Part shown: piece after piece, positions 34,352-59,000 of the stretch
Layout of the letters: each line of letters starts with the position of its first letter
How positions within the stretch are numbered: the first letter of the stretch is position 1
Origin: a bacterium
GTDB taxonomy: Bacteria; Verrucomicrobiota; Verrucomicrobiia; Limisphaerales; RI-55
Reading direction: 5' to 3'
Assembly (NCBI GenBank): GCA_016124235.1
Contig: WGOC01000022.1
Coordinates: 157,923-221,922, forward strand
Length of the DNA stretch: 64,000 nt
Position numbers and translations under genes: made by a program
Notes under the pieces: model-generated
What the model was told of the DNA's origin: nothing
The model's database searches: none
Seen by the model: only the letters and a program-made list of their open reading frames with translations

Positions 34352-34387
34352 CGATCTGTGCGGACCGCGCGAAGGATTGTTCCAAAA
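34352..34387 (+). repeat. left-end bipartite repeat (CGATCTGTGCGG-N14-TGTTCCAAAA)
   Basis: CGATCTGTGCGGAC (34352-34365) is the exact reverse complement of 49687-49700. TGTTCCAAA (34378-34386) matches the complement of 49667-49675. It lies 70 nt beyond the stop of the MuB-like gene. Confidence 0.8.
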
Positions 34388-34457
34388 TCCGTCCGTACGC
34401 TCAGACGGGCCGCTTGGCGGCCTCTCCTTAAATCAGTTTTGCTAACAGCCGGAAGCG

Positions 34458-41190: not shown

Positions 41191-41780
41191 GATTCGCCTC
41201 CTTTGCTGAAATCTGGGGTTTGACGAGCTGAACAGGGCCGCTGCCGTTTGCTGCCGTTTGTACGTGCGCGGCTTTCGGCCGGTTCGCGGCTCAAGACAGC
41301 GGCCAAATCGTCCTGGGGCATTTTAGAGCGTTGCTTTCTGGCCACTTTGGAAGCCGGTTTTGGGCTCAGATGCCGTTCAGCCAAAAACTGCCGAGCCGAG
41401 GCGACGCTTACGAGCCGTTCGTGCCTGACTACGCGCCCGACAATCATCCCACGTCGACACAACTCCATAACGTGCGGTCGTGTGCAGGAAATAATTCTGC
41501 CCAATTCAATACAGGGGATCTCCAACTTGCCGGAGCCCGGCAGGATGAACAGCAACGCCGCATCAAGATTGTGAAAGCGTTGACCTCCGGGAAGGAGGGA
41601 TTCGGCAAGGATGCGGATCGCGCGCTTCCTCCGACCCAATCCAATATCGAATGCCCAGCGAATCTTACCCTTACGAATTAGGGCCTCGACTTCGGCGTAA
41701 TTCAGAAACAACGCGGACTGCAGGCTCACTGGTTTGACCAGGCGTGCGCGTGGCGGTGTGGCTGTTCGCGTGGCGGGCAT
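41187..41780 (-). CDS. putative DNA-binding protein (two excisionase/MerR-like HTH segments)
   Basis: 197 aa. LNYAEVEALIRKGKIRWAF and IISCTRPHVMELCRRGMIVGRV resemble HTH_17-type motifs. The tail is basic. Confidence 0.5.
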   Translation of the reverse strand: MPATRTATPPRARLVKPVSLQSALFLNYAEVEALIRKGKIRWAFDIGLGRRKRAIRILAESLLPGGQRFHNLDAALLFILPGSGKLEIPCIELGRIISCTRPHVMELCRRGMIVGRVVRHERLVSVASARQFLAERHLSPKPASKVARKQRSKMPQDDLAAVLSREPAESRARTNGSKRQRPCSARQTPDFSKGGES

Positions 41781-41783
41781 CCC

Positions 41784-42383
41784 TCAAAGTTTCTGCTGAC
41801 ATCCGCCAGTGACCCATGCCCGATAGCCAGCCGGATGCGCTTGCATTGCGGCGTCGAGTGCTTCCCCGCGCGTGGCGCCGGAGCCCAATTTGGCGTGGTA
41901 AGCGTTGACGAAATCATCAGGCGGCGCGGAACCTTGAACCACGGCGGCGGTTGGGAACGGTTCGCTGGGAACCCGGCACAACACGCTGTTGACGGAGACA
42001 CCCATCGTTTCCGCCAGCAATTCAGCCAGCGCCATGCGGTCCCAAGTGGATTCCTTGCCTTTCAGTGCGTCCGTGATCTGCTGATCATGCTGCGCGTTCA
42101 TCTCCCGGAGGTAACTCTTGCGGACGTTCGGATACTTCTCGCTGATCATACGTTCAGCGGTGGGCCGGTCCATGCCGAGATTCGAGACCAGCTGATCAAC
42201 CATCGTTGTGAATTGATGGGACTTCGCCGGGGCCGGGGCCGGGGCTGGTGAAGGTGCCGGGGCCGCCGCCTGGACGGGTAGGGGGGTTGGTCGAATCGTC
42301 TCGACGCTCGTCACGCGCAGCTCTTCCGGGGCCGGCCAGATGGGAGTGGAAAGCGCGCCTTTGATCAAAAATAATTCACTCAT
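41784..42383 (-). CDS. hypothetical protein with Pro/Ala-rich linker
   Basis: 199 aa with QAAAPAPSPAPAPAPA encoded by a GGGGCC-type short repeat (42226-42270). No family recognised. Confidence 0.55.
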   Translation of the reverse strand: MSELFLIKGALSTPIWPAPEELRVTSVETIRPTPLPVQAAAPAPSPAPAPAPAKSHQFTTMVDQLVSNLGMDRPTAERMISEKYPNVRKSYLREMNAQHDQQITDALKGKESTWDRMALAELLAETMGVSVNSVLCRVPSEPFPTAAVVQGSAPPDDFVNAYHAKLGSGATRGEALDAAMQAHPAGYRAWVTGGCQQKL

Positions 42384-42885
42384 GTGTGTCAGTTGGTTGA
42401 GGTGGAACTGCGAAAAAACCTTGGAAATCGGTGAACACCGTGATTTCCCGACGCACCAGGCCGACGGCGCTAATCAATTCGGCCGGGCAGCGGCGGTGAC
42501 ATCTGAACCAATTGGAGATCGCTGCCGGGCAATCTGGTTGCCGGGCGTAGGCTCGCCATGCTTTCTCGACCGAGCCGCGCGTAACCGTCAGAGTACGGAC
42601 GGAAGCAATCACCTCTTCAGTTAGAACGGATGAAAAACGCTTGGTGTGGCGGCGCCCTGATCGGTGCCACGCAGGGCGGAGGGCTTGAAAGCCGCCGGAT
42701 TGAAACGCGTGGAGATAGCGGTCCAACGTCTGCCGGCTGCAGCCCAGCTGGCGAGCTGCGGCGCTGCGGCCGTGGGCCTGCAGGAGGGTGGAATAATCTT
42801 CGATCAGCTGAAGACGTTCCTCGGCGATCTGGTTGGCACGGTCCATTGAAGCGAGTCTAGGTGATTTCTTCCGTTTCTGATTCAT
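42376..42885 (-). CDS. putative HTH DNA-binding protein (homeodomain-like/transposase-N-terminal type)
   Basis: AARQLGCSRQTLDRYLHAFQSGGFQAL is HTH_23-like. An alternative start is the ATG at 42846. Confidence 0.55.
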   Translation of the reverse strand: MNQKRKKSPRLASMDRANQIAEERLQLIEDYSTLLQAHGRSAAARQLGCSRQTLDRYLHAFQSGGFQALRPAWHRSGRRHTKRFSSVLTEEVIASVRTLTVTRGSVEKAWRAYARQPDCPAAISNWFRCHRRCPAELISAVGLVRREITVFTDFQGFFAVPPQPTDTHE

Positions 42886-43180
42886 GGGGCGGTCCGGGAG
42901 GATTGAAGCGCCCGTCGTCCAAGCGGGCGCCCTTGAATGTTACCGAATCCTCTCTCGCCGCGTATGCGGTCATCCAAAAATCAACGTCGTCCAAAAAGCA
43001 AAATGACAGGGGCCGCGCCGTGCCAACGCAACCCCTGTCACCCATACACCGATCGCCACCGACACCGCTTGGACTTGCGATTGTCGATTCGATGGTTTCG
43101 GCGGTAACCGAAGAGAGAACCGCCGAAATCAGGAGCGCCGCCCGCAGGCCGCGCAAATTAACTGGCACGATTGCCGGCAT
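42857..43180 (-). CDS. hypothetical small secreted protein
   Basis: The ATG at 43180 (TAATG overlap with the upstream stop) gives MPAIVPVNLRGLRAALLISAVLSSVTAE, a signal-peptide-like N-terminus. The track start at 43213 is also possible. Confidence 0.4.
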   Translation of the reverse strand: MPAIVPVNLRGLRAALLISAVLSSVTAETIESTIASPSGVGGDRCMGDRGCVGTARPLSFCFLDDVDFWMTAYAAREDSVTFKGARLDDGRFNPPGPPHESETEEIT

Positions 43181-43719
43181 TACTTTGTTTTCACGAGATA
43201 CGCGTTGAGGCAATCGATTGCCCGAAGCGCAAAGGCGACGTCGCCATCAAGGCCCGAATCATCACTCAACGGTGCGAATCCGAAGTGCCGCACGTCGTGA
43301 AGGTCCGTGCAGACGGGAAGGTAATCAAAGGCCATGCGGCGCATTTCCTCCCGCATTCCAGGATCGGAAACGAACAGGGTGATGTGTTCGGCAAATCGCT
43401 GGCCTTCCGCGACGTGAAGGTCATTGAAAGTCGTCGCAAAATTGCTTTTCAATGTCTTGATCTCCGCGCGCAGATCGCCGCAAATGGCCTGCAGTTCCTC
43501 GGGTAGTTTGGCCGCTTGGATCTGCAGCAAATCCATCCTGGTGCGCGCGCTCGCCAGCGCCGCGACGCCGGCTTCGTCGTTCGGCGAAGTCGAGTGGAGC
43601 AAGGCCTGGCAATGTTTACCCTGGGCGATGACGGCTTCGTCCTGCTCGGCGATCTTGCGCAGCATGGCGCGGCGTTGCTCGGCGACTTTTTTCAAATTGG
43701 TTGGGTCAAAATTCTTCAT
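43180..43719 (-). CDS. hypothetical protein (179 aa, helical)
   Basis: The start overlaps the Ner-like stop (ATGA). No family recognised. Confidence 0.55.
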   Translation of the reverse strand: MKNFDPTNLKKVAEQRRAMLRKIAEQDEAVIAQGKHCQALLHSTSPNDEAGVAALASARTRMDLLQIQAAKLPEELQAICGDLRAEIKTLKSNFATTFNDLHVAEGQRFAEHITLFVSDPGMREEMRRMAFDYLPVCTDLHDVRHFGFAPLSDDSGLDGDVAFALRAIDCLNAYLVKTK

Positions 43720-43955
43720 GGTTGGGTTGGGGTTGTTTGGGGCCAGAAATGAAGGCCAAAGAAATCTTCAATAGCTCTCCGCGCACGGGAGCATCTTCTT
43801 GCTGGTTGAGCGCCGTTGATGACGCCGTGAAGGTAGCGAGGTGAGTAACCAAGCCTTTCGGCCAATTCTTTTACCGTCATCCCCCGCGAAAGAATCTCAG
43901 CCCTGATTCGACGGCCGTTGCACGGATTGACGGATTGAGTTGCGAAACTTCGCAT
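43716..43955 (-). CDS. Ner-like (HTH_35) DNA-binding protein
   Basis: 79 aa. RIRAEILSRGMTVKELAERLGYSPRYLHGVING..P.......AIEDFFGLHFWP matches the Ner-family layout (HTH followed by a ..IWP-type C-terminal motif). It is divergent from the XRE-type repressor. Confidence 0.65.
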   Translation of the reverse strand: MRSFATQSVNPCNGRRIRAEILSRGMTVKELAERLGYSPRYLHGVINGAQPARRCSRARRAIEDFFGLHFWPQTTPTQP

Positions 43956-44031
43956 AGGTAACCAGCATTAAAGAAACCCGTAATGCGTGTCTTAGGAAAC
44001 ACAAAGTGTGTCCTGAGTCAAGTGGTTTTCT
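43956..44031. promoter_or_regulatory. divergent promoter/operator region between the Ner-like and repressor genes
   Basis: 76-nt intergenic region with GTGTCTTAGGAAACAC (43987-44002, GTGT/ACAC inverted) followed by a second GTGTGTCC (44006-44013). Confidence 0.45.
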
Positions 44032-44832
44032 ATGAGTAAGGCTCACATTCGATTGGAGACGTTTGGATCAAGGTTGCGTTGGGTGCGCGAACAATATGGC
44101 TTGTCGCTCGCTCAGTTTGGGCAGCGCTTCAATGTTACCAGAAGTTATCTGAGTAAGCTTGAAAGGGGCGCTGCTGTGAACCCTTCCACGGATATTGTTG
44201 ACTCGATTTGCGGCCTATATCGAGTACGAGAAAAGTGGTTGCTGGAGGGCGAAGGAATGCCGTTTGTGGATGATTTGACCAATGATCTTGCGAACAAAGG
44301 CAAGCTAAGTCCGCCTTTACAGCGAATCCCTCTCACGTCTAAGCAGAAGATGGAAATGGCGCCCTTATATGTGGCTGCGTCGGTTGTGAAAGTGCTTTCG
44401 GTTGGGCAGCTGGCGCATGCTCTCTCTGGTTTACTCAACGAGCATTCTTTGGATGATCCATTTATCGGGACAGCGGCAAGTATTTACGTTGATGAACTGG
44501 CGAAGCGGTTGAAGGAGTGGGAGGCTTCCGCTGATATTCAGAAAGCAATACCCAGTGAACAGCAGTCTACAATAGGTAAAACATATTTGACATCTAATGT
44601 TTCCCTGGCTAACCAAGACGACGTGAAGATTCCCGAAGGTTTGTGGCCCAAGATGGTTGGAAGGCTAAGAAAGCTTCTCGGTCCATCTGGAAAGAAGACT
44701 CAATTCGCTCGCGATCTCGGCGTGACCCGTCAAACGGTTCATCGTTGGTTGAACGTGGAAGAAGCCGAACCGTCCGGTGATCTTGCCCTCCGTATCCAGC
44801 GTTGGATTCAACTGGAGGAAAAAGCAAAGTGA
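44032..44832 (+). CDS. XRE-family repressor-like protein with two HTH segments
   Basis: N-terminal LRWVREQYGLSLAQFGQRFNVTRSYLSKLERG (HTH_3) and C-terminal KKTQFARDLGVTRQTVHRWLN (second HTH). 266 aa. Confidence 0.7.
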   Translation: MSKAHIRLETFGSRLRWVREQYGLSLAQFGQRFNVTRSYLSKLERGAAVNPSTDIVDSICGLYRVREKWLLEGEGMPFVDDLTNDLANKGKLSPPLQRIPLTSKQKMEMAPLYVAASVVKVLSVGQLAHALSGLLNEHSLDDPFIGTAASIYVDELAKRLKEWEASADIQKAIPSEQQSTIGKTYLTSNVSLANQDDVKIPEGLWPKMVGRLRKLLGPSGKKTQFARDLGVTRQTVHRWLNVEEAEPSGDLALRIQRWIQLEEKAK

Positions 44833-44893
44833 AACAAGGCGGCGCAATCGGTGGTCAAGACCGACTGCGCCAAGCCCAACGAAAGGTCCTATC

Positions 44894-45199
44894 GTGAGAA
44901 AAGAAATTCGTCAGGCCGACGAAGATAAGAGCACGTCGCCTGCCTCCCCACAATCGCAAAGGCGCAACCGCGCGCTTCCCAAGAGATCAGCGGTCATCCA
45001 GTTTTACGGAGCGGACGGCCGTGTCTTCTGTGAAGTTGAACTGACTCCAGAACTCTTTGCCGCCGTGCGAGGCGCCGCGCGCAAAGCCCGCTGCAGTGTG
45101 CTGACGTTCATCAAGCGGGCAATCGAGGCAAAGCTCGCTGCGTTGGAAGAGGCGCAACGTTCTGTATCCGCACTGAGTGCAGAAAGGAGCGCGAAGTGA
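44894..45199 (+). CDS. hypothetical protein, C-terminal ribbon-helix-helix-like fold
   Basis: VFCEVELTPELFAAVRGAARKARCSVLTFIKRAIEAKL fits a beta-helix-helix (Arc/CopG-like) pattern. The GTG at 44894 is preceded by GAAAGG. The start is uncertain (the ORF is open from 44777). Confidence 0.4.
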   Translation: MRKEIRQADEDKSTSPASPQSQRRNRALPKRSAVIQFYGADGRVFCEVELTPELFAAVRGAARKARCSVLTFIKRAIEAKLAALEEAQRSVSALSAERSAK

Positions 45200-45414
45200 A
45201 AAGCCGCCGCCGTCCGATCAAACAGCCGGCCAAGCCTCTCTATGACCGAGATGTCCTCGGTGAATTTGCGGATGTCGCGACATCTCTCAGCAGCCTGAAC
45301 GTTGGGGAATTGGAGGGTTTCATCCAACGGATGCGGGAATTTATCCGGGCTGCGGAAGCGCGTGTCGCCATGCTCCGAAATGAACCGCAACTCAACCCAT
45401 CAGCCCTTAACTAA
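45196..45414 (+). CDS. hypothetical protein (72 aa)
   Basis: GTGA start/stop overlap with the preceding ORF. No family recognised. Confidence 0.45.
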   Translation: MKSRRRPIKQPAKPLYDRDVLGEFADVATSLSSLNVGELEGFIQRMREFIRAAEARVAMLRNEPQLNPSALN

Positions 45415-45423
45415 GGAGGCCAC

Positions 45424-45681
45424 ATGGCAAAACGAATCATTACGAAAACGACGCCAGCCGACCTCGAACAGTTGCCACCGTGGCTCGAACATTTGGAGCC
45501 TGAACTGCGGAAGCTGGCGGTGGATTGGAACGCGGCAAAGCGCCGCCGGATGGCCGCCATGTTTTCGCGTTGGTCGGCCCAGTTGATTGAGTCGGCCGAC
45601 ATGATAGATGCCCATGAAGACGAAGGTGCTTTTGACTTGGAACAACGCAACGTGAAGGCCGGCAATCCCGCCTTCAACTGA
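45424..45681 (+). CDS. hypothetical protein (85 aa)
   Basis: The ATG is preceded by AAGGAGG (45412-45418). No family recognised. Confidence 0.5.
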   Translation: MAKRIITKTTPADLEQLPPWLEHLEPELRKLAVDWNAAKRRRMAAMFSRWSAQLIESADMIDAHEDEGAFDLEQRNVKAGNPAFN

Positions 45682-45690
45682 GGGCACACT

Positions 45691-45864
45691 ATGAAGACGC
45701 TCTTTTGTTCCGGTAAAGACGCCAAGTGTGCGTTGGTGGTAAAACGCGGCGCCCGTCGCCGCCTTCGCCATCTTCAGTTCGTCAACCCACACGGGGCGCT
45801 CGATTGGTGCATGGCTCGCGGCGTGTCGTTTGTGTGGGTGCCGGCTGGTGTTGAACCCGGCTAA
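45691..45864 (+). CDS. hypothetical small protein (57 aa, below the ORF-track cutoff)
   Basis: My own translation gives MKTLFCSGKDAKCALVVKRGARRRLRHLQFVNPHGALDWCMARGVSFVWVPAGVEPG, with stop TAA at 45862-45864 immediately before a strong hairpin. Confidence 0.35.
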   Translation: MKTLFCSGKDAKCALVVKRGARRRLRHLQFVNPHGALDWCMARGVSFVWVPAGVEPG

Positions 45865-45868
45865 AAAA

Positions 45869-45895
45869 GCGGCGGCAGGTTATCCCTGCCGCCGC
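45869..45895. terminator. strong hairpin (11-bp perfect stem) ending the repressor-side operon
   Basis: GCGGCGGCAGG-TTATC-CCTGCCGCCGC. It is preceded by AAAAAA (a U-tract only for minus-strand transcripts) and has no T-run on the plus side. Confidence 0.6.
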
Positions 45896-46428
45896 TCGCA
45901 GGCACTATCTCCAGATACGGAGAATCATGTCCGCAATGGTTAGGACGTCTTTGGCCAGCTTTAGGACCTTTTCTAAGGTCCAATATTTGTGGCGCCGACG
46001 TCCGCGATTGCGTCCGTTTCGCATGGGGTATTACCTCCATTGCAGGTCTCACGACCTCACATTGAACGCACGGTGTGTTTCCACACCTGACCCATGCGGA
46101 GCTTTACGCTCCACGCACCCGATGAGCAGCCACGGAAGCTTATGTCGCCGGGCACCTGCACGCTTCACTCGAACTCAAGACGCCCGTGGCAGGGTGAAAT
46201 TATTCCATTCCCTTTGGCTGTCAACGTGCCGCCCAGAAAGCGTTTGCAATGACCAGATCGCATGCTATGAATTCGTTTAGGAACGCCCGTCGTAATTCCC
46301 TCCAGCGGCACCTCCCACGCCGCGCTTCCTCTGATACCCGGCGGGCGTTTCCTTTTTCTCAGTGCTTGCGCCTGGTGACTGTTCTGCCACGGTAGCGAAG
46401 AACCGAGGCCGCGCATGTTGGACTCTGC

Positions 46429-46472
46429 AAAAAACCCGCCAGTGATTGAGTTCGCTGGCGGGTTTTTCTTTT
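46429..46472. terminator. bidirectional rho-independent terminator
   Basis: AAAAAA-CCCGCCAG-(12 nt loop)-CTGGCGGG-TTTTTCTTTT. It lies 9 nt beyond the end of the minus-strand ORF 46481-46663. Confidence 0.75.
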
Positions 46473-46480
46473 CTGCTGAA

Positions 46481-46663
46481 TCAGTTTGCCGCTTTGGCGT
46501 GAATAGGCACGTCCGCTCGCACCGGCGCCGGTGGTTGTGAAGGCGGCGGCGGCTGTGGCGGGGGCGGCGGCGGCCTGCTCCCAACGGGTGGAGGATTGTT
46601 TACGCCGCCTTTCTTAATCAGCCCTTCATTGGCCGCCATCATCGTTCTCGGTTTCTCGCTCAT
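46481..46663 (-). CDS. possible small proline-rich protein (60 aa)
   Basis: ...NNPPPVGSRPPPPPPQPPPPSQPPAPV... It overlaps the end of the upstream gene by 38 nt and ends just before the bidirectional terminator. Coding status is uncertain. Confidence 0.3.
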   Translation of the reverse strand: MSEKPRTMMAANEGLIKKGGVNNPPPVGSRPPPPPPQPPPPSQPPAPVRADVPIHAKAAN

Positions 46664-47351
46664 TTGATTCTTCAGTTGACTTGGGGTTCAGTTCGTCCGT
46701 CATTGGAATAGACCGGAACTCCAAAGCTATTTTTCCGCGCTCTAAGTCGAGGTACATCGCCCCGATGTTATAGAGCAAATTCCCATCACTGTTACGATAC
46801 ACGCCAACATCCCTAAGGTAAAGCTCGGCTTTTACACCATCGTCTGAAAACCCTAATATCCACCCGTCATAGGCAAGATCCCTGGCTGGATCTCGGACCG
46901 TAACCCACGATCCGCTCTTGTCCTGGATGTTCATTGCGTAGCCCCAAACATCCAGATTGCCTGATTTGTGGGTGAATCGGAATTTTCTCCCAATTCGATA
47001 AGGGATGCCAAGATTCAAAAGCGCTGAACTGCCGACGCCACTCACGATCGCGATGAGGCATGCTCCGATTAGCTCTGGAAAACTGATCGTCGAATCTTGC
47101 TTTAGCAGGTTTTCAAAGAAGCCCATTTTGGTGGGTAAGGACCACTCAAATTCCAGATTCAGTGATGGGCATATCCAAAGGAAGATGAACCACTCGACCA
47201 GGTAGCAACTGAGGCCAAAGAGCAGAACCTCAATTATGTAGAAGAAAGGCTCACGTTTTTTGATAACCGCGAACGCGTTGATGATCTGGGCGACAATGAC
47301 GCCCGGAAGAAATAGCAGCAGAGATCTGAACGCGAATTCTGATATCTCCAT
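46626..47351 (-). CDS. hypothetical membrane protein (about 4 TM helices + soluble beta-rich C-terminal domain)
   Basis: The ATG at 47351 (MEISEFAF...) is preferred over the TTG at 47396. Hydrophobic segments LLLFLPGVIVAQIINAFAV, FFYIIEVLLFGLSCYLVEWFIFLWI and LIGACLIAIVSGVGSSALL. The DNA is visibly AT-richer than its surroundings. Confidence 0.6.
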   Translation of the reverse strand: MEISEFAFRSLLLFLPGVIVAQIINAFAVIKKREPFFYIIEVLLFGLSCYLVEWFIFLWICPSLNLEFEWSLPTKMGFFENLLKQDSTISFPELIGACLIAIVSGVGSSALLNLGIPYRIGRKFRFTHKSGNLDVWGYAMNIQDKSGSWVTVRDPARDLAYDGWILGFSDDGVKAELYLRDVGVYRNSDGNLLYNIGAMYLDLERGKIALEFRSIPMTDELNPKSTEESNERETENDDGGQ

Positions 47352-47445
47352 TCCCGCTTTGTAACGTGCGCGGCGATTTTCGTCTATCCGAATCAACTAG
47401 GTCTTGAAGCATTTCGATTCGATCAGCACACTATTCCTATAGGAA

Positions 47446-48252
47446 ATGGAATTCGTCAGAGCTATTCCGTTTGAAGAAGCGGTCGCCAAACTGGGTGATC
47501 GTTCGGTTATTGGTTCGTGGCTGAAGTCCACCGAGTGGGCTGGTGTGCCAGTGGCGTTGCGCGATCGTGCCTATTTCTCCGCCACGGTCGAAAGTGTGCG
47601 CGTGCTGCAGCGTGGCCGCGATATGATCAACGATTTCCTCACCGGCGTGCGTGAGATCCTGCCGAATGGCGAAGTGGCGTTGAAGGCGGGTAGTCGTCAG
47701 GAGTTCGTGAAGCAGATGCAGAGCTTCATGGAGTCGGAGGGGATGATCCGTAAACACGGCGGCTTGTCCGACGTGGCCAGCCAGCGCCGGCTGGAATTGA
47801 TCTTCGATACGCAGACCAGACAGGCCCAGGAATATGGCACCTGGAAGCAGGGCCAAGACCCCGACGTGCTCGACGAGTTCCCAGCGCAGAGATTTATCCG
47901 CGTGCATTCCGTGAACGAGGCGCGCACTTCACACGCGGCGTTTGAAGGCGCTGTCCGCCTCAAGAGTGATTTGCAGTTCTGGCAATCGATCAATCAGGAT
48001 TTCGGCGTGCCTTGGGGGCCGTGGGGTTGGGGTTGCGGTCACGACGTGGAAGACGTGGACCGTGCCGAAGCCGAGTCGCTCGGCTTGCTGCAACCAGGCG
48101 AACCGGCCCGCCCGGTGGACAAGTCGTTCAACGATCAGCTGAAGGCATCAACGTGCGGCATTGATCCAGATCTGCAGGGCGTGCTGAAGAAACAGTTTGG
48201 CGAGCAGATCCAGAGCGAAGGGGACGCGGTGAATTGGAGGGGGCAGGAATGA
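47446..48252 (+). CDS. phage Mu F-like / SPP1 gp7-family head morphogenesis protein homologue
   Basis: IPFEEAVAKL N-terminus, RRLELIFDTQTRQAQEYGTW (compare R.ELIARTE...A.N.G), and RFIRVHSVNEARTSHAAFEGAVRLKSDLQFW (compare D.RTR..H..L.G......D.FW). Recognised from memory of the family motifs. Confidence 0.6.
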   Translation: MEFVRAIPFEEAVAKLGDRSVIGSWLKSTEWAGVPVALRDRAYFSATVESVRVLQRGRDMINDFLTGVREILPNGEVALKAGSRQEFVKQMQSFMESEGMIRKHGGLSDVASQRRLELIFDTQTRQAQEYGTWKQGQDPDVLDEFPAQRFIRVHSVNEARTSHAAFEGAVRLKSDLQFWQSINQDFGVPWGPWGWGCGHDVEDVDRAEAESLGLLQPGEPARPVDKSFNDQLKASTCGIDPDLQGVLKKQFGEQIQSEGDAVNWRGQE

Positions 48253-48575
48253 CGTTGCGCGATATTCTCCGAGGCCGATTGGTGGGCAAGTATGACGATG
48301 CCGAAACTGTTCGGCGCCTGGTCGGCATCGGCCTCACCGAACTGGAAGCCAAACGTTGGTTGATTGACCAGGATGCAGGCTTCGGGCCTGACGTATTTAG
48401 CGAAGACGACAATGACCGTCAACGGCGGACGATAATGACTGATCGCATGATGGCCGCCATTCCCGACGAGGTGGCTATCGACCGCTTGCAATCGACCGGC
48501 CTCACTGAGGCTGAAGCGCGGCGGTGGCTCCAAAACCAGGATGAACTATTCCTGCCGGATTTGGTAATTGATTAG
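48249..48575 (+). CDS. hypothetical protein with internal repeat GLTE(L/A)EA(K/R)RWL.(D/N)QD
   Basis: The ATG at 48249 overlaps the MuF-like stop (ATGA). There are two copies of an ~18-aa motif (GLTELEAKRWLIDQDAGF / GLTEAEARRWLQNQDELF). Confidence 0.5.
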   Translation: MTLRDILRGRLVGKYDDAETVRRLVGIGLTELEAKRWLIDQDAGFGPDVFSEDDNDRQRRTIMTDRMMAAIPDEVAIDRLQSTGLTEAEARRWLQNQDELFLPDLVID

Positions 48576-48586
48576 GGGGTAGTTGT

Positions 48587-49207
48587 ATGTCTCGCACAAA
48601 GCCGAAAGATCTCACTATTTTTGGGGTGACGAAGCGACTGGATGAAATCGTAGCGCTCAGACACGATCTGATAGCGTATTTCAACGATCTTAATCGGTCG
48701 CAGTCCTATATGTCTGCCCCGAGCGAGGGAGAAAAAGCGAGGGCGGTAAGACCAGAGATTAACCGAAGGCTTGATTCTGTTGTCGAATATATCGAGGCCG
48801 CGGGTGTACCGTGCGTTCTATATCATTCGCCAGCGCCGGCAATCGGTGGATTTGCAGGCAATATCCATGTCCTCCATAATATCTTTAATTGGCATCAGCT
48901 CGATATTCGGCCAGTTCAAATTCTCGACATCTTTGAGAGAGCGATAGGTGTCTATCAAGCTCAGGTTGGACCTGCAAAAGTGCGGACATTTAATCCGATT
49001 TTTTGGCTGCTTCGCTTCTTACGAGCGATTAGCTCGTTACCGTTCTCACTGCTCGATAATGTCGGCCTTGGTGGACACAAGCTGGAAGAGAGTTTCGTCG
49101 GTAAATTGATCAAGTTGTTGACTGAACTTATTACATTGGCTTGTTCGGCGTACGGTTTTCTCAAATTAATTGGCCGCGAAGATATGATTCGAAAGTTTTT
49201 TGAGTGA
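48587..49207 (+). CDS. hypothetical protein (206 aa) with hydrophobic C-terminal region
   Basis: AT-richer ORF. The C-terminal FNPIFWLLRFLRAISSLPFSLL and LIKLLTELITLACSAYGFLKLI segments suggest membrane association. No family recognised. Confidence 0.55.
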   Translation: MSRTKPKDLTIFGVTKRLDEIVALRHDLIAYFNDLNRSQSYMSAPSEGEKARAVRPEINRRLDSVVEYIEAAGVPCVLYHSPAPAIGGFAGNIHVLHNIFNWHQLDIRPVQILDIFERAIGVYQAQVGPAKVRTFNPIFWLLRFLRAISSLPFSLLDNVGLGGHKLEESFVGKLIKLLTELITLACSAYGFLKLIGREDMIRKFFE

Positions 49208-49280
49208 GCGGCGCAGAGCGGCGAAATGCCGCCTACTGACTCTCTTGTCCGGCGGCTGATTTGTGAGATTCTGTGGGCCG

Positions 49281-49457
49281 ATGAAACTCGAAAATCCATT
49301 CTTTATAATCTTGGCGGCGCTCCTGGCGGCGTGGGCGATCATCGAACTTATCAATGACAGCTCCCGCGCAATAGAATGCCGTTACCGTAAGAGCAAGGCC
49401 CGGCCGAAAGGGTTGGTCGGTTACAAACAGGTCGCTCCAGAGCCGGTCCTTGGCTGA
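49281..49457 (+). CDS. possible small single-pass membrane protein (58 aa)
   Basis: MKLENPFFIILAALLAAWAIIELI followed by a basic segment (positive-inside). It competes with an antisense 81-aa ORF. Confidence 0.3.
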   Translation: MKLENPFFIILAALLAAWAIIELINDSSRAIECRYRKSKARPKGLVGYKQVAPEPVLG

Positions 49458-49585
49458 GTCGCTGCCGGTATCTGGCAATGCGGCTGCCGGAGATGTGCTG
49501 CGACGCCTGTCGCGACGTCTAACCGGTTAATTCAGGACGCATCACTTATGATTAGACGAAGTGATTGAAAGTTGTCCGATGTCCC

Positions 49586-49619
49586 ATCTGTGCGGTCTAT
49601 TTTTCAATTTGTTCCAAAA
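49586..49619 (+). repeat. right-end inner copy of the bipartite repeat (same orientation as the left end)
   Basis: ATCTGTGCGG (49586-49595), N14, then TGTTCCAAAA (49610-49619). Confidence 0.8.
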
Positions 49620-49666
49620 CTCCGAGCGACCGGCACTGAAGGCCCGCCGTTATTGAGTATTCTACG

Positions 49667-49700
49667 TTTGGAACAGTCGGACATCAGTCCGCACAGATCG
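49667..49700 (-). repeat. right-end outer copy of the bipartite repeat (inverted relative to the left end)
   Basis: TTTGGAACA (49667-49675), N13, then CCGCACAGATCG (49689-49700). Reverse complement is CGATCTGTGCGG-N13-TGTTCCAAA. Confidence 0.8.
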
Positions 49701-49853
49701 CCTGCAGCGGCGTTTTTCGGCCAAGCTCGATTCAGGGGGCGTTTAGGCTCGTAAGTGCCTCACACTCGGAAAGTTCCAAGCTGGTTTAGTCTTGTTCACC
49801 CTAAAATGTGCGAGCGTACAACTCGGTCGCGAACATTCAAACGGGGAAAGAAA

Positions 49854-49928
49854 TGGTGCGCGATACAGGGTTCGAACCTGTGACCCCCACCGTGTCAAGG
49901 TGATGCTCTACCACTGAGCTAACCGCGC
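49854..49928 (-). tRNA. tRNA-Val (anticodon GAC), CCA encoded
   Basis: The reverse complement folds as a canonical cloverleaf: acceptor GCGCGGT/ATCGCGC, D-arm GCTC-AGTGGTA-GAGC, anticodon arm TCACC-TTGACAC-GGTGG, variable loop GGGTC, T-arm ACAGG-TTCGAAC-CCTGT, then A-CCA. 75 nt. Confidence 0.93.
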
Positions 49929-50006: not shown

Positions 50007-53000
50007 TCACGCCGCCTCGACGGCTGCCTGCTCCAACACGCGATTGAGCGTGCGGGCAGCGGATGGCAGCACAGTCGCGAGGTACTCGAGTCGTTCGCCG
50101 ACGGCCTGGACGCCTTCGGCAGCGCCATAGTTTACCAAGCGCCGATACCAGTTGAGAAATTCCTGGCTGGTTTCGGCTTCGTTTTCCGGCGGGCCGTCGA
50201 TGCTGAACTCGCCCTGCATCAATTCGCAGAACAGGCGAGCACTCAGCGCGCGCGGCTGACCATTGAGTTGGCGCCAAAAGGGCAGGGCGTCCGCGTATTG
50301 TTGAGTGAGCAAAAGCGTTTCACCTCGGGCGGCGATCAAGTCACGATTCGTCGGATGATGCTTGATGGCCTCGGCGGTCCAGTCGCGAGCGAACTCGATG
50401 AAGTCGGGTTGGCTCAACGCCACGCGGGCGCCGTGAACCCAAGCTTCAACGAACTGCGTGTTTTCCGTGACCAGGCCGTGGAACAATTTCAGCGCTTCGA
50501 CCGGGTCGCCGTGTTTTGTCGCAAACCGGGCGGCATCCATGCGCAGGGGCGCAAGCTTGGGATCTTCCTGGATGGCGGAGGCAAATTCACCAGTGGCGTC
50601 CTCGATTGCTCCGGATTGCCAAAGTGCCAGCGCGAGGCAATGACGCGGGGCGCCGCTATGGATTACCTGATTGACCAGGTAGAATGACGGTTCGTTGCGA
50701 GTGGCGATGCAGGCACGGAAGGCCGCCACCGCTTCGGTCCATTGGTGAAGCTCCTGGTGGGCGAGACCGAGCGTGAATTGCAAGGAAGCCGTCAGCTTGC
50801 CGGCCCGGGCAACTCGCGACGAAAGCACGGCGACGATGTCGGACCAGCGATTCACCTTCATCAAATGCGAGGTGTATTGCGTGAGCAACGATTCACGCAA
50901 CTCGGGTGTCACTTCATTGACCGGCTTTCCATCGAGAGCGGCGAACGCTTCAGCGTAGCGTTTCAACCCTTCGTCAAATCGTTCAGAACGAATCAGCTCG
51001 AGCCCGTAGTTCATCAACAGGTTCGGATCGCCCGGGATTTCGTCGATTGTCATTTCAAGCAAACGCAGATTGCGGATGACTTTGTTCCGGTCTTTGACGA
51101 CCTCCGCGGTGTAGCCGTGGTGAATGAGTTTCACATCGGCCACGGCTGTTTCCATGTTCCATTCTTCGCGACGGACTTCGACGCTGCTGAACACCTGTTC
51201 GTGAACACGGCTCACGTAAAACAATCCGGGCGCATTGCGGAACAACCTCGCGACAAACGTGCGGCCTTCGGCTTCATGGCCGACGTCGATGATAGGCAGA
51301 CGCCAGCCGATCGTGTTGGGCGTTTGCATCGCTATCCGGAGAGCGGCCTTGCTGTCGGGCGCAAGTTCTTCGTCAGCGTCGAGCACGAGCACCCAGTCGC
51401 CGGTGGCTTTCTCAAGGGCGGCATTGCGGGCCGCGCTAAAGTCATCACACCACGTGACCGAATGAACTTCCGCGCCGTGCTGTTTGGCGATGTCGACTGT
51501 TCGATCGGTCGAACCGGTATCCATCACGACGATTTGCTGCGCAATGTCTTTGATCGAGCGCAGGCATTGATCCAGGAACTTCTCCTCGTTTTTGGTGATG
51601 AGACAAACGCTGAGCTGTGGTTCGCGAGTTGGGGGCAGCGGAGAAAATTCGGTTTTGGTTTTCGCCGGACGTAGCTTGTGCGTTTTGGCGAACTTACGAG
51701 CCGTTTTCCAATTCGGCGTGAGCGACAGTGCTCGATCAACGCATTCCTTCATCCGCGTGGCATCACCGCTTTGGCAGGCGATTTCGGCGAGCAGCAAACA
51801 GGCTTCAGGATGGAACGGGCGTTGAGCGATCGCGTCGAGATTCGCGTTCCAAGCGGCGACCAGTTTGCCTTGTTTGAACAATTCGCGGGCGGCACCCAGG
51901 TGACCGAGTTTGGCGACGGCGGGCAGCTTGATCGCGATTGGTTTGTGCGACTTTTGTTCTGAGGGCTTGGGTGTTTCTTCTGCCGACGGGACGTCGGCAG
52001 CACGTTGCTGCACCAGTTCGGCGATGCGATTGGCGGTGTGATTCCAAGTCCAATTTTCGCGGACATGGGCGCTGGCGGCGTTTCCGCGGGCGCGCGCTTC
52101 TTCGCGATGTTCGACGACGTGGCGAATCAGCTTCTTGAGCGCGTCAACATTCGGTTCCAGCAACCAGCCATCACCGGCCAACGGCATCCCGCTGATTTCG
52201 CGACCGAACACCTGCCGCGTTGATGGAATACGATAACCAATTTCCGCCGGCACAAAATCATCGGTTGCACCACCGGCCGTGACGATTACCGGCAGACCGC
52301 AGGCCATTGCTTCGAGAACCGGCAGGCCGAAACCTTCACCGCGATACGGATGCACGAGGCAATTGCATGCTTTGTAGAGTCCGGGCAGATCGCGCGCCGG
52401 AAGTTCGTTCGTCAGATAAAGAATCTCCGGTGTGTTGGGCTGCTTTTGGATTTCGCGAATCTGTTGGTCGATCGTCTGGCCAGCGTAAACGGAAGCGCCG
52501 CCAAAATCCTTGATAACCAGACAAACGTCATCTTTTGCCGTGAATGTCTCGCAGTAGGCCTTGAGTAGAACGTCGGGGCCTTTTCGGTGGATCGTTCCGC
52601 CGACAAATAGGAATTTGAACTTCTTCTTCGTCGCCAGTGAGAGCGGTTTGACCTGCGGATGGAAAGCCTTGGGATCGATTCCGTTTGGGACAACATGAAC
52701 TTTTTCCGCCGGCACGCCCGACTCGATGTAAACCTGCCGCACGTAATTCGAGGGAACCCAGAACACGTCCGCGTTCGCGGAGGCATTTACCCAGTCCTTC
52801 GGCAGCGAACCAAATTCCCACGGTTGAATCACCGCGAGCTTGCCCTGGGCCGGCCGTGACCAATCGGGCGGCCATGCGTGGCGCACAGTGAGCGAAGCAT
52901 TCGTGTTCGCCTTGCTCGCAAGTTTACCGCGATACGATTGCAGTGGTTTCGCGAGCTTGCCGGTCACGGGTGTCGTCTGAATCCGTCGAATAGAAGCACC

Positions 53001-56000
53001 GTTTTGAATGACCAATGTGTCCGTGAGAACGCGGTTGATGTTCGAAAGACTTCCGTAATCGAGAAACGAACCGTGCCAGTTGATTTCAAAGCGGGTCGTC
53101 TGCTTGACGGCTGGTTGAGCGTTTTGACTGGGTGCCGGTTGTTTGGCAATGGCCTTTTGGAATGTCTTTCTGAATTCGTCGAACGAGCGAACCAGCGTGA
53201 TGTCGCTCCACGGATCGATGAACACAAAGTCGGAGGCATCCTTCTTTCCGGTCCAATCCGCGCCGCGGAGCGAATCAAAGACAATGGTGGGAATGCCGCG
53301 GAGTGCCGCAAACGTTTTGCCCCACGAATCAGCGCCAACGAAGACTTTGCTGGACGCGATCCATTCCATTTGTTCGCGGAACGAATAGCTGCGTTGGTCG
53401 ACGGCGCCTGAAATGGCGGGATAAAGCGTCGCTTCATCGGGCGTGCCCAAGATCACTGGAGTCAGTCCGGCGTCGAGGATCAATCGTTGCAAAGCGGGCC
53501 ATGTCGCGGGATCGAGTTGGTTGCGCTTCGAACCGACCATGCCCGTGAGACTGCCTTTCGGCGAGAGCGTGACGCACGCCGGAGAATCAGTTCGTTGAAA
53601 CTCGCGCGCCCATTTCGGGTGTTCGGTGACCTTACGCTGGCGATAGATGTCGAACGTCGGATTCCACTCGGAGTATTCCTGATAGGGCGTCACTCCCACG
53701 CCGCGACAGGTCCTCACCAGTTTCATCAACATGCGGACGAGTAAATGATGATGCGGGTCCGGATGTTCGGGCAGGAAGTAGACGTTTTTGAGTTTCGGGA
53801 ACGCGTCGAAAAAGCTCTTCATGGCCTCGTTCGAATTGGCCATGCTCACGATGACGGATTCCGGGTGACGATCGTAGAAAGTCGACAGCAGCAACAAGCC
53901 GTCGCCCGCACCTCCGCAATGGAAATAAAACGGACCGATGCGTTCCAGGTAGCCGGCCAGCATTTCCGCGAGCTTCGCGAAGTGATTTCCGTTTTGCAGT
54001 TCCTTGGTGACGACGGGGAACAGTTCTTTCACGAGTTCGAGGTAGCGACCGTCTTTTTCCCCGGTAAGAATAGAATCTACGAAGGCATTCCAATTGGTGG
54101 GTGTCGCTGAATCCATGCCCAGGAGCAACTTCTGATACTCGCGAGCCTTTTCTGTCTCGTGACGACACAAGCTTTCGCGCGTCATCTGGCGGACGGCGGG
54201 CGGGTCCAAAATGACACCGTCGATTGACGTGTAACGCGGATCGCCGTGGATGACCGTGCTGTGTGAATTGAAACGAATCGAGATTCCAGCGGCGTGCAAA
54301 CGACGGGAGAAATCCGCGTCCTCGCCCTGATAGAAGCCAAGGCTGTCGCTCCAGCGCACGCGATCCCCCACCGCCGCCTTCATCACACACAAGCCGCCCG
54401 TGACGTAGACGTGCGGATCGGTTTCGTCGTAAGGCAACAATTTGTGGCCGCGCGGTCCGGCGTTGGTCGCCCAATCCCAGTAACGTGTTCCGTCGGGGTT
54501 GAGCAGCCGCACACACAACACTTCAAAGTCATCGCCAAACTGTTGGAGGCCTCGGAAGAAATCGGATTGGAAAATCAGATCATCGTCGGCGACAACCAGA
54601 TGATCGAATCGGGCGCGATCGAGGAGGCGATTACGCATCTCACCTAAACGGCCGTTTCGCGCGGCGTCGACGGCAGGAACAAACTCGATGTCGTCAAAAC
54701 CTTCCGACGCTTCGCCGCCGATCAGAATTTCGCAATTGGGAATGTTCAATGACTGCACACTCTCGATGGCCCGCCGGAGTTTCTCTGGGCGCTTCCCGTT
54801 GGTGATGAAACAGAACGACCAGCCCGACTCACGAACGCGCGGTTTGAGATCACTGTGTTCGATCAATTTGCCGCGCAGGATCTTCAGGCGACCGGCGAAT
54901 TCGTGATCACCATTCCGCGTGGTTTTGCCAATTTGCAGATCAATCAGACCAAAGAAAATTCGGTCCAATCTGGCTTTGTGGGCACGGGCGAACTCGGATT
55001 TGCTCGCACAATCCAAGGCGGCTTCCAGCGCAACACCAGCTTCGCGGACGGCCTCTGCGGAAAGGGGTTCACGTAAATCGAGCAAATGAGTGAGCTGGTC
55101 ACTGAGTTGTAGATCGTTCGGCGAGCTCAATGCGTTCACTGACGCGACTTGTTCGGGCTTGCGGGCGAAGAAACGGATTTCTTCGCCCTGTCCGTTTTGG
55201 GCGAGTTGATCGACGAGTTGTTGATGGCTCGCGTCGTTCCGCAGCGATGCGTCCACGCGGTCGGCGACCTCGCGGTGCATACGCATGCCGTAATCACCGA
55301 GCGCGGTGTAAATTCGTTCCACCACAAAGCCCGCCGCTTCGAGATGTCGACGCAATGTCTCGGGTGTATAGTGGACGTAATGATAATTCGGATCGAGCCA
55401 GTACCAACGATCGCCCGCGTGTCGCGAACAATAGGACGCGAAGTTCGGAACAATGCCGCAGAATAGACCTCCCGGTTGCAGCGTGAGGAAAACTTTGGCG
55501 ATCGCTTCACGCGGTTGCGGCAGATGCTCGAGCACATGCAGCATGGTTATGACTTGGTGCGAATTCTCTTCGTAAGGCGTGTCCAGGAACTGTGTGTTGA
55601 CGACGGGAATCTGCAGTTCGTCGTTGGCGTAATGAACCGCCTTGCGGGTCAACTCCATGCCCGCCGGTTGGAATCCGTGGTCGCGCGCATTCAAAAGAAA
55701 CGCGCCCCAGCCACAACCGATGTCGAGAATGCGTCCGCGCTTCTGGTTGATCCCCAGAATTTCCTGGAAGAAATAGTCCCGCTTCAAACAGCTCGCCGCG
55801 GCCGCATCTTTGGACTTGGGCAGAGCCATGTGGGAACCATCATCCGCGTAGGTTTGATAGAGCTTCTCCATCTGCTCCGTCGTCATCCGCGTGCGGAGAT
55901 AAACCGTCTGGCAATCGGAGCACTGGACAATGTCCGCCGCATGGCGAACGCGATCGGCGCGCCGCGAGGCGCAAAATGGACAACCAACACTCTCCGTCGT

Positions 56001-59000
56001 CGGCTGAGCTGGACGCACCTGAAGAGGCGGCGTAACGGGAACTGGTTGGGCTGCCGGTACCGGTGATTTGCTCTCCTGCCGCCATTGTTGCAAAAGCGTG
56101 TTCTCAGAATCGGCGTTTGCCACTTCGTCGAAGAGCAATTCGGCGGTAGTCGTAGTGCCCAGCTTCCAATAGCAAAACGCAACTTGCGCGCGCGTGGCAG
56201 TGTCCTTGGGTTGTCTGGTGAGAATCGACTGGCAGTGCTTTAGCGCGTCCTCCCAACGGGATTGTTCCATCAAAATGACACCGAGCAATCGTTGGGCGTC
56301 TTCGTTGTGCGGTTCCAATCGCAACACTTCGCGGGCATTGCGTTCGGCCTTCGCCAGCGGATCATTTTCGTCCTGGCCTGTGAGGTCGTTGAGACATTCG
56401 CGAGCGAGCTGGTTTTGCGGATCGAGTTGCAGGATCTTGCGGAACACTTCGATGGCCGTTTCGCCTTCGCCACCGCCGAGCAAACATTTGGCGAGGAGCA
56501 GCAGCGTTTCAACATCGTTGGCGTTCAGTTCGAGGACGCGGTAACAGACCTTCGCGCCGTCGAGCCATTGCTGCCGTTGAATGTGCAAAGCAGCTAGCAA
56601 CCGCAACGCATCCACACCGTTGGGATTGATCGAGAGCGCTTCACGAATGACGGATTCGAGATTGCTCGGCGACTCTTGGGTTGTCGGATTTTGCGGCGCG
56701 ATCGGCTGAGTTTGTTTCGGCGATTGCGAATTGTATTTTTCAGACGCCGCAATTCCGTTCCGTGAAACTGCGATGGATTCGCGGAAGAAGCGGCGATGCT
56801 CTTCGGCCATGCAGCGCCAATCAAACTGAGTTACGGCTGCCCGTGCGTTTCGCCCGAGCGCCACTCTCAGTGCCGGTTCATCTCTCAGCTCGATAACGGC
56901 CTGCATGAACGCCGGCAGTTGCCGGGATACGATAAGCGCGCTCTCGCGGTGCTTTAAGTATTCGGGGACCGCGCCGCAATCCGTCGTGATGATGGCACGC
57001 TCCATCGCCGCTGCCTCCATCACGGAATTGTTGTTCCCTTCAAAGTCGGACGCGCAGATGTAGGCGTCGATCGAATCGTAAAATTCTCGCATCTGGTCCA
57101 CAGCGAGATTCCTGTCGCTGTAGCCGCAGAAAACCAATTCAACACCGGGAAGTTTGCTCAAAGGCGCGATAAATTGTTCGAAGCCCTTGCCGGGAGATTT
57201 GCGGTTGCCCGCCCAACCGAGTCGTAGTTTTCCGGTTGGCGAAACGGCGGACCGGGTTCGCGGTCGAAAGCGTTCCAGGTCGACTCCGTGGGTCAAGTGA
57301 AGCGTGGTTGGAACAAACGGTGCAAACAGCTCCGCGAGTCGTTTAGAAACGACGTGGACGCGCTGAAATCGTGTTTTCAGGCGCTCGGCGAAGAGGAGAA
57401 AATCTTCGTCTTTCCACGAGAGATGGGAACGGATACCGGTCACCCATTTCGCGGGCGTTCGAATTGCTTCGTCTGGAATCAGGTTCCATTCGAGTGGATA
57501 GATCAGATCAAAATTGTCCTCGTAGATCGACTGTCCCTGGTAGGCAATCGAGAACTCAAACTCGTCAGCGAGCAGGAGTTTAAGCACCTTGCAATGACGT
57601 TCGAAAATCCAGTTTGGAACGTCGGCTATGAGTAGGATGCGCGGTTTCCGACCTGGCGGCGAAAATGATCGTTGAATCTGCGTTTCGTCAGCACGCAGTC
57701 GAGACGTCGAAAATGAGGGAGTCATTGGTTGGCAGTTGGCTGAGGGACAATTCTCAAGGACGAAAATCGGCTGAACGTAATTGCGATCCGGTCCGGCACC
57801 TACCGTGTCGTGATCGAAGAGAGATTCATCAAATCCGTAGGCGGCAAGCAGTCGCCACCCTGCGAGCAATTTCGGAAGGCGGTGCCGGCCGTAGATGCGA
57901 TGGGCATTCCATACAACAACGTCGCTGCCGACGGGAACCGCCAGAAACAGTATGCCTCCGGGCCGAAGCATGCTTCGAACTTTCTGCATTGCTGCTACGT
58001 CGCCATCTGGATTGAGCGGATCGCCATAGCGGCCCAGGCCATCATGTTCGAAACTGGATATGGAAAACGCCACATCGAATAACCTGGGGGCGGCCTCAAA
58101 TTCGGAGGGCGTCAATGTCGTGATACCCGGATGATCGGTTACGATCCGGCGATATTCGACCGTCGTACAACGCCCTCCGTTTTCGAGAATCAGGGCTTCG
58201 TACCACGGAAGCTCCGATCCAATGACCACAACATCTTTGCCGCGAATACTGAAGCGATCCAGAGCTTGATAGAGCCAGAGATTGGTGGGGCCGTAGCTTC
58301 CTGCCTCGCGCCGTGAGATCCGTTGCCGAAGGTCTTCAACGAGTGTGCGAGGGTAGCGAAGAGGTTGTTCGGGCGGTGTCGCCTCGTTCAAGTACCATTC
58401 CTCAACTCTGGCCCTGCCCGACATGGTGTAAGCCTCCGTCATCGTCGCGGGAATTTTCTGTGGTGGAGTTCCGGGGACAACACTCGCCGCTTGTTGAGAT
58501 GCCGTATTCACCGCGCCTGATCGACGCGCAACGTACACAATTTTGGGTATTTCCTGTGTCTCCTGAAAGATCGACTCGATGGTCAAGCCACTGCGGGAGA
58601 AAATTTGTTCGATTTCGGCGCGCGAGTGCCGCACGCGATATTCGGACGGGCGCTTTTCTGCGACGGGTTTGCTGCGATCCTGCGTGCAATACTGGTTGTC
58701 CGGAAAGTCGTTGTAGGCGGCGTCGATGACGTCCAGTACGATGATGCCACCAACTTCCAAATGTGGAAGGTATCGGTCGAGGAAGTCATCCAGCGAAAAT
58801 CCTTCTATCAAGTGGGTCCAGTTGAGCGCCTCGATCAGGCCGAATGCCATTTCGGGCAAATGGTGAGGGCTCAAACCGTCGTCCTGCCAAAACTGTATCG
58901 GGAAGCCGGTTTTGGTGGCGATTTCAGTTCCCGCCGCAACTGTTCGGGGGTCGATATCGCATCCATAGAGTTCCGTAAAGCCATGTTCCGCCAGCCAGAA

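Follow-up and report, generated by a model that had tools for sequence, protein, structure and literature searches.

Three copies of a bipartite repeat, one standing apart and two arranged head-to-head, are found in a 64,000-nt stretch of a Verrucomicrobiota contig (WGOC01000022.1; the whole stretch is referred to as the window). Do these copies mark the ends of a mobile element, and which protein would bind to them? A previous reading based on the letters of the sequence only (the sequence-only reading) had assigned the repeats to the ends of a MuA/TnsB-type element. This assignment is supported. The locus encodes a transposase of this type, as judged by PHROG and fold, together with a MuB/TnsC-like ATPase. 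Our data point to the three copies being binding sites for the element's own MuA/TnsB-like transposase, located in the ends of a transposon of 15,502 bp, the two ends being built differently, and we regard this as the probable explanation.

Three copies of a bipartite repeat in the window

An exact pattern search of the window for ATCTGTGCGG-N(10-18)-TGTTCCAAA yielded three matches, at 34354-34386 (+), 49586-49618 (+) and 49667-49698 (-), with 14, 14 and 13 nt between the half-sites. Number and spacing agree with the ATCTGTGCGG-N13/14-TGTTCCAAA repeat described before, whose copies we continue to call L, R-inner and R-outer. The coordinates given for them were right to 1-2 nt; R-inner begins at 49584 if its two leading bases are included, and the end of R-outer is 49666 and not 49667. 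The perfect 14-nt inverted repeat CGATCTGTGCGGAC (34352-34365 and 49687-49700) is likewise real. None of 100 dinucleotide-preserving shuffles contained a match, so that three observed copies compare with zero expected. Half-sites searched singly, with one or two mismatches allowed, occurred at background frequency and were not enriched in the window, indicating that the signal is the bipartite unit. Further degenerate half-sites elsewhere in the window were rejected as candidates for the same lack of enrichment.

Element boundaries and target-site duplication

The termini were placed by aligning the sequences that follow the tRNA gene across loci; the reverse complement of this sequence recurs downstream of the ATPase gene. 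Based on 11 homologous elements and a near-identical relative, the element extends from 34338 to 49839, with termini of the 5'-TG...CA-3' type that read 5'-TGGTAG... at the transposase-proximal and 5'-TGAATG... at the repressor-side end (Table 1). The TG...CA type had been anticipated correctly, although for termini at 34357 and 49695 and with GATC as the 4-bp target duplication. Alignment and duplication give the outer positions instead, and the duplicated tetramer is AACG. Exact 4-bp duplications were present in all nine elements having both flanks. Duplicated 5-mers were seen in none of the nine, and a 5-bp duplication was rejected; when the termini were shifted by 1-4 nt, only 0-1 of the nine duplications still matched.

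A close relative from other samples (L036-L038; ATPase 77% identical) allowed a direct comparison of the transposase-side end. This end is near-identical, with two substitutions, up to TGGTAG, and homology breaks exactly there, the flanks of the window element and of L036-L038 being unrelated beyond this point. The comparison with L036 concerns the transposase-side end, as this locus stops before the repressor-side end. In addition, contigs L002, L005 and L024 end within 0-1 nt of the TG terminus. A Logan contig of 23,631 nt (L001, SRR10063242) is an independent assembly of the same element; it ends inside the head-to-head pair, where the TGTTCCAAA half-site of R-inner ends (~49617), which is not an element terminus.

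On the right-hand side, the DNA at 49701-49839 belongs to the element because its conserved GGCACTTACG box is homologous to the (A)TCAANNNNCTTACG box of the relatives. The terminal site at 49814-49839, which matches the other end of the element (TGGTAGTTCGCGATCGATCTGTGCGG) and the termini of L002 and L005, had been overlooked because it has diverged. The former labelling, with one copy at the left end and two at the right end, has to be revised: L (34352-34387) is the subterminal site of the transposase-proximal end, and R-outer, which had been taken for a terminus, is internal and lacks the terminal ~12 nt.

An uninterrupted allele, with which a comparison had also been proposed, was not found. 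A pattern search of JGI metagenome contigs for the empty site gave no match, and the closest orthologues of the flanking PSD1 gene (L039, 89%; L040, 71%) are non-syntenic and have no tRNA gene. The uninterrupted allele is predicted to read ...TTATAACG|GGGAAAGAAA-tRNA, and an unoccupied tRNA-Val allele tRNA-CCA-TTTCTTTCCCCGTTATAACCC.

Table 1. Features of the element and of its insertion site (window coordinates)
Feature	Position	Strand	Evidence
Target-site duplication, copy 1 (AACG)	34334-34337		same 4-mer outside both termini
Transposase-proximal end: terminus 5'-TG, box CGCGATCGAT, core TGTGCGG, TTCCAA	34338-34387	+	L036-L038 breakpoint, aligned ends
B: AAA+ ATPase, 503 aa, MuB/TnsC-like	34458-35969	-	Pfam AAA_22 7.5e-15, TniB 6e-5, phrog_296
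A: DDE-type transposase, 801 aa, MuA/TnsB-like	35966-38371	-	phrog_310 transposase 7.7e-30
Cargo: tape-measure-like protein, 647 aa	38368-40311	-	phrog_3336 1.2e-29; PDB 8iyk tape measure 1.7e-6
HTH protein, 169 aa (HTH_29/28/23), in operon	42376-42885	-	tblastn homologues in 8 related loci
Cro/CI-type HTH regulator, 266 aa, divergent, Mu c-like position	44032-44832	+	HTH_3 2.7e-16
R-inner: full bipartite site, 221-256 nt from the terminus, orientation opposite to the repressor-side end	49584-49619	+	pattern match
R-outer: direct bipartite site within the end, 140-174 nt from the terminus	49666-49700	-	pattern match
Conserved box GGCACTTACG, repressor-side end	49750-49759	-	homologous to (A)TCAANNNNCTTACG in relatives, equivalent place
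Repressor-proximal terminal site 5'-TGAATGTTCGCGACCGAGTTGTACGC, core TGTACGC at position 20	49814-49839	-	end comparison
Target-site duplication, copy 2 (AACG)	49840-49843		same 4-mer outside both termini
tRNA-Val(GAC), insertion landmark	49854-49928	-	ARAGORN, Rfam

Conserved arrangement of sites at the two ends

Homologous loci were fetched via the transposase (28 genome loci, mostly from Verrucomicrobiota MAGs, followed by further loci), and 11 elements with 30-50% protein identity were delimited. A core with the family consensus TGTSSGG is located at position 20 of both ends of these elements with two exceptions, both on the repressor side: L002 (position 18, terminus approximate) and L018 (a variant core missed by the pattern). 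At the transposase-proximal end of the window element the core occupies position 20 (34357-34363) and TTCCAA position 43 (34380-34385). TTCC[AG]A was found at position 43/44 of the transposase end in nine of the 11 elements, L002 having none and L019 only one at position 37. An alignment of 12 transposase-side ends gave a similar picture, with the core at 20 and TTCCAA at 43/44 in most of them and no TTCCAA at this place in L002 and L005; the consensus of this end is TGTAAAGCCGCGGTGATTTTGTCCGGTTTG-N-GAGAGTTCCAAGTTCCAAAA. Aligning the ends of homologous elements, as had been suggested, thus showed that the half-site layout is kept at fixed positions from the termini. Such conservation is consistent with the proposal that two half-sites and a spacer of fixed length represent putative transposase-binding sites.

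The repressor-side end is built differently. In distant relatives its terminal site has no TTCCAA, and the bipartite unit is therefore not universal. The positional counterpart of R-outer in the relatives consists of direct internal cores at ~103/122 and TTCCAA at ~137. Further inside, an inverted core lies at ~180-205 in eight of the 11 elements; it is at 245 in the window element, where it belongs to R-inner, and at 116 in L002, and in L018 none was matched. The inverted site carries the element's own core in L004, L008, L016, L019, L020, L021, L024, L025 and L026, and it repeats the sequence found subterminally at the transposase end, CGGTGAT included. The core variant is uniform across the sites of one element and varies between elements (e.g. 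TGTGGCG in L016, TGTCCGG in L008 and TGTCGGG in L025), which fits sites co-evolving with one protein.

Additional motifs were noticed on the repressor side. Six distant relatives (L010, L008, L029, L024, L004 and L028) carry four to five phased repeats of ~11 nt (CGGAAT[TA]A) at ~27-95 and behind them a box (e.g. TATCAAGGACTTA) that agrees with the IHF consensus WATCAANNNNTTR; of these motifs only GGCACTTACG is left in the window element. They suggest a possible host-factor bend between the terminal and the internal sites. In the window, three consecutive core-like heptamers (TGTCCGA, TGTCCCA, TGTGCGG) lie past the R-inner core at 49570-49595, and the spacer of R-outer contains TGTCCGAC; extra overlapping half-sites may be present at both places.

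Genes of the element

A minus-strand operon directed toward 34338 ends with the genes for the tape-measure-like protein, the transposase A and the ATPase B, the B gene overlapping the stop of the A gene. For A we obtained neither a Pfam match nor a sequence match in the PDB, and its likeness to MuA and TnsB is one of fold and PHROG only. In a Foldseek search with the AF2 model, which is of moderate quality only (pLDDT 68, pTM 0.34), the Mu transpososome 4fcy ranked first (E 4e-10), followed by ShCAST and Tn7 TnsB (7svw, 7pik). One homologue of A (P0007) carries PF09299, the Mu transposase C-terminal domain. The only IS-family signal for A was a sub-threshold match to ISNCY (E 0.0024). Judging from the alignment and the secondary structure prediction, invariant acidic residues of A (D379/D380, E450, E507), placed on the predicted RNase H-like fold, may form a D-E-E triad, with F-E-R-G where MuA, TnsB and integrases have D-N-G. 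Because the second catalytic carboxylate thus seems to be Glu and not Asp, activity of A is not certain.

The evidence for B comes from sequence as well as from structure prediction. B matched phrog_296, 'DNA transposition protein', with 1.5e-19, and its best sequence match in the PDB was MuB (8xvb, E 0.009). The AF2 model (pLDDT 79) was again closest to the MuB filament 8xvb (TM 0.75) and then to TnsC (7ufi, 7plh).

Only A, B and the Cro/CI-type regulator are universal in the 11 delimited elements; the 647-aa tape-measure-like protein is not conserved in the family except in the close relative L036. Pfam and NCBIfam searches detected no TnsA domain in the ORFs scanned of the window element and of L008. 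A TniQ/TnsD protein or a CRISPR module was not found in the ORFs scanned either; a very divergent target selector may be present. Just beyond the tRNA-Val gene, the window contains a giant ORF of 3,399 aa (50007-60206) followed by one of 1,251 aa (60203-63958), both on the minus strand.

Insertion downstream of tRNA genes

A spacer of 14 nt separates the 3' end of the tRNA-Val gene from the element, and an Rfam scan detected the tRNA only. In nearly all loci whose upstream DNA is long enough, a tRNA gene precedes the transposase gene by 8-9 kb on the same strand. Among the 16 loci with an upstream tRNA, the repressor-side end is located 14-15 nt after the tRNA in 15, always in the same orientation. 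The spacer between tRNA and terminus measures 14 nt in ten loci and 15 nt in five; the outlier L013, with a degenerate core, has 11 nt by the rule used to place the termini. To describe the target as the spacer between the PSD1 gene and tRNA-Val, as was done previously, names the right place and is too loose, since insertion occurs at a precise distance from the tRNA gene. The occupied genes encode tRNAs for Val, Arg, Ala, Met, Gly and Glu; 12 of the 16 are Val or Arg, and 12 of the 16 end with GCACCA. The spacers have no consensus in common, and what is recognized in the target must therefore be part of the tRNA gene and not of the spacer.

Two other readings of this neighbourhood were rejected. 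The tRNA gene is not a part of the element, because the duplication sits between it and the terminus. An island integrated at the tRNA gene by a tyrosine or serine integrase does not fit either: no integrase domain was found in any ORF scanned, and the flanking repeat comprises 4 bp and lies outside the tRNA gene.

The half-site GTTCCAA at 34379-34385 differs by one base from the T-arm box GTTCGAA of tRNA-Val. This likeness could be due to chance or could be a clue to how the tRNA gene is recognized. One possibility is that the domain binding the GTTCCAA half-site would also bind the T-arm box.

Possible function of the sites

From the layout of the ends and the predicted proteins we infer how the sites might be used. 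The comparison shows that both ends open with 5'-TG and have the core at position 20 (consensus TGTSSGG; TGTGCGG or TGTACGC in the window element). TTCCAA comes 14 bp after the core at the transposase-proximal end, and the two together form copy L. The repressor-proximal end has a terminal site without TTCCAA, then R-outer as an internal direct full site and R-inner as an inverted full site. Several transposase protomers would bind to these sites and fold the repressor-side end, the conserved ACTTACG/IHF-like box lying between the sites, and the folded end would then be paired with the single-site end. Cleavage at the 3' CA would be followed by joining to target DNA with a 4-bp stagger. The target, presumably delivered by the MuB/TnsC-like ATPase, would be the DNA 14-15 bp downstream of a tRNA gene, with the repressor-side end always tRNA-proximal. 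The site span of ~42 bp is larger than the 22-bp sites of MuA and TnsB, which counts against transposase sites; one half-site could be bound by an HTH protein of the element (169 aa or 266 aa) or by a host factor.

Instead of serving transposition, the sites might be operators for the 266-aa or the 169-aa HTH protein, or sites for a host bending protein, and control expression or immunity. The head-to-head pair does resemble the operator of a dimer, the element encodes two HTH proteins, the regulator occurs throughout the family, and in Mu the operator region doubles as transposition enhancer (PMC3145075). Nevertheless we consider this explanation unlikely. One copy is located at the far end, downstream of the A/B operon, where there is nothing to regulate, and in all elements its core keeps position 20 counted from the terminus; copying of the transposase-end subterminal sequence with its CGGTGAT by the inverted internal site also argues against operators. 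A quite improbable explanation is that R-outer and R-inner are the ends of a nested MITE-like derivative, or the remnant of an earlier insertion, and have no function here. It is true that the two copies point toward one another, as the ends of a mini-element of 115 bp would, and that the pair, as single-stranded DNA, folds better than shuffles (z -2.9). However, the 19-nt terminal sequence is missing from both copies, TG is not found where it would be expected, and there is no flanking 4-bp duplication; in addition, an equivalent inverted site is kept in position in most of the delimited distant elements, which would not result from a chance nested insertion.

Even less can be said for the arrangement proposed initially, in which L and R-outer are the terminal inverted repeats of an element at 34357-49695, GATC is duplicated and R-inner is an extra copy; we judge it very improbable. 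Its attraction is the perfect 14-nt inverted repeat with GATC on both sides. On the other hand, 49701-49839 is homologous to the repressor-side ends of relatives and contains a terminal site with the core at 20, and the 19 nt outside the R-outer core are unlike the terminal sequence. AACG flanks 34338 and 49839, an equivalent rule holding in nine of nine elements, and homology with L037 runs 14 nt past 34352 and stops at 34338. Termini at the TG of TGTGCGG with duplication of GATC were accordingly ruled out by the end alignment, the L036-L038 breakpoint and AACG, and at the outer edge (CGATC) of the inverted repeat there is no duplication. Finally, it is barely conceivable that the copies are chance repeats or belong to a REP-like sequence spread over the genome, an explanation favoured by nothing except the shortness of the half-sites. 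It is contradicted by the shuffles, none of which contained a match, and by the location of every copy inside the element ends. Moreover, the bipartite motif is not widespread: a version specifying 23 bases had no match in JGI metagenome contigs, and a version specifying 19 bases had one isolated match in IMG/VR (L033), consistent with chance. Binding of the element's own transposase therefore remains the reading that we prefer; bipartite repeats as such are nothing unusual in ends of this kind.

Relationship to Mu, Tn7 and IS21

The element resembles Mu in several respects. The folds of transposase and ATPase are closest to MuA (4fcy) and MuB (8xvb), phrog_310 and phrog_296 are families of transposable phages, and a divergent Cro/CI-type regulator is followed by the A and B genes. 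Termini are of the TG/CA type in both, and each end has several transposase-type sites in differing layouts; Mu ends have three transposase sites each, with different spacings (PMC3145075). In contrast to Mu with its ~37 kb, the elements described here have 9-15.5 kb and lack a full set of head, tail and lysis genes. The A and B genes are situated directly at one end and are read outward, the duplication comprises 4 bp and not 5 bp, and insertion is site- and orientation-specific at tRNA genes, whereas it is near-random in Mu. Sequence similarity to Mu is too low for Pfam or PDB profile searches.

Tn7 is approached in other features. The combination of a TnsB-like transposase with a TnsC-like ATPase, which Foldseek ranks just below MuA and MuB, is shared with Tn7, and so are asymmetric multi-site ends and insertion in one orientation only, at a constant distance behind a conserved gene. 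Homing to tRNA genes is known from CASTs (I-B2, I-D, V-K). CyCAST inserts 30-33 nt after tRNA-Leu (PMC10293859), compared with 14-15 nt here. Unlike in Tn7, no TnsA, TniQ/TnsD or CRISPR module was detected, the duplication has 4 bp instead of 5 bp, and one site is inverted where Tn7 has directly repeated TnsB sites. Absence of TnsA is not decisive, because many Tn7 relatives (Tn5053 type) also have none. The Tn7 terminus TGTGGGCGGAC had been given correctly in the sequence-only reading. Its proposed likeness to the repeat did not hold up: TGTGGGCGGAC stands at position 1 in Tn7 and the core at position 20 here, and the resemblance is not family-wide, the family core being TGTSSGG (e.g. TGTCCGGAAT).

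IS21 (IstA/IstB) also combines a DDE transposase and an AAA+ helper with repeated end sites, TG/CA termini and 4-8 bp duplications, all of which it has in common with the element. It differs by its size of 2-2.5 kb without cargo or regulator, and the transposase found here matches MuA/TnsB and not IstA. We know of no tRNA targeting by IS21. Taken together, the element homes like a Tn7-type transposon, has proteins most like those of Mu and departs from defining features of both. It belongs to a large, for the most part unnamed branch of the Mu/Tn7 superfamily that homes to tRNA genes and duplicates 4 bp.

To our knowledge, site-specific transposition by DDE transposases has so far been tied to dedicated selectors, namely TnsD/TniQ, TnsE or CRISPR effectors. 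Here, a minimal conserved set (regulator, A and B) goes along with a distance, defined to the single nucleotide, from tRNA genes of several identities. We tentatively raise the possibility, which we think somewhat doubtful, that a large family of the Mu/Tn7 superfamily homes 14-15 bp downstream of many tRNA genes without TniQ/TnsD or guide RNA, the transposase or the ATPase reading the tRNA gene. Should A and B be sufficient, the family would connect the targeted Tn7 systems with the near-random Mu system and would represent a compact protein-guided system for safe-harbour insertion. For Verrucomicrobiota and related genomes, where the proteins of these elements are at present mostly 'hypothetical', the features found provide annotation rules: TG...CA termini, a core at position 20 of each end, a 4-bp duplication and a tRNA gene 14-15 nt upstream.

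Distribution and variation of the family

A profile search of 1.84 billion representatives yielded 617 clusters (50% identity) at E <= 1e-30. The matches are mostly unnamed or called 'hypothetical protein', and a few ATPase homologues are annotated as 'DNA transposition AAA+ family ATPase'. The family profile matched nothing in the PDB by sequence; with fold matches only, the family thus appears as a deep branch of the MuA/TnsB superfamily. No relatives were found in IMG/VR. A literature search, of incomplete coverage and therefore weak as evidence, turned up no description of such elements.

Relatives measure 9-14 kb compared with 15.5 kb for the window element. Single phage morphogenesis genes occur in L008 (4688-6091), L002 (6007-7398), L036 (3286-4182) and the window (38368-40311 and 47446-48252). 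Across the members they include an HK97-type capsid (Pfam 2e-32), Portal_Mu, a Mu gpI-like protease, tape-measure-like proteins and a 'minor head/DNA pilot' fragment (phrog_220, 8e-15); a full virion set was found in none of the members carrying such genes. These members could be decayed mini-phages or transposing satellites, and given the scattered capsid, portal, protease and tape-measure genes the family as a whole possibly consists of transposing phage satellites.

Some genomes harbour two members of the family (L008 and L013 in CAVXLO01, L006 and L014 in DATJXK01, L017 and L030 in DASYZW01), and one MAG has two element copies, at tRNA-Ala and tRNA-Val. L028 contains a decayed copy (9315-13500) with an intact repressor-side end beside tRNA-Arg, a deleted regulatory region and a transposase truncated at about residue 190. 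In L032 the transposase is fragmentary, and a tRNA-Val gene is located downstream on the opposite strand. The smallest complete element, L004, has 8,960 bp, is inserted at tRNA-Glu and carries a RadC-family gene (5717-6400) beside the regulator.
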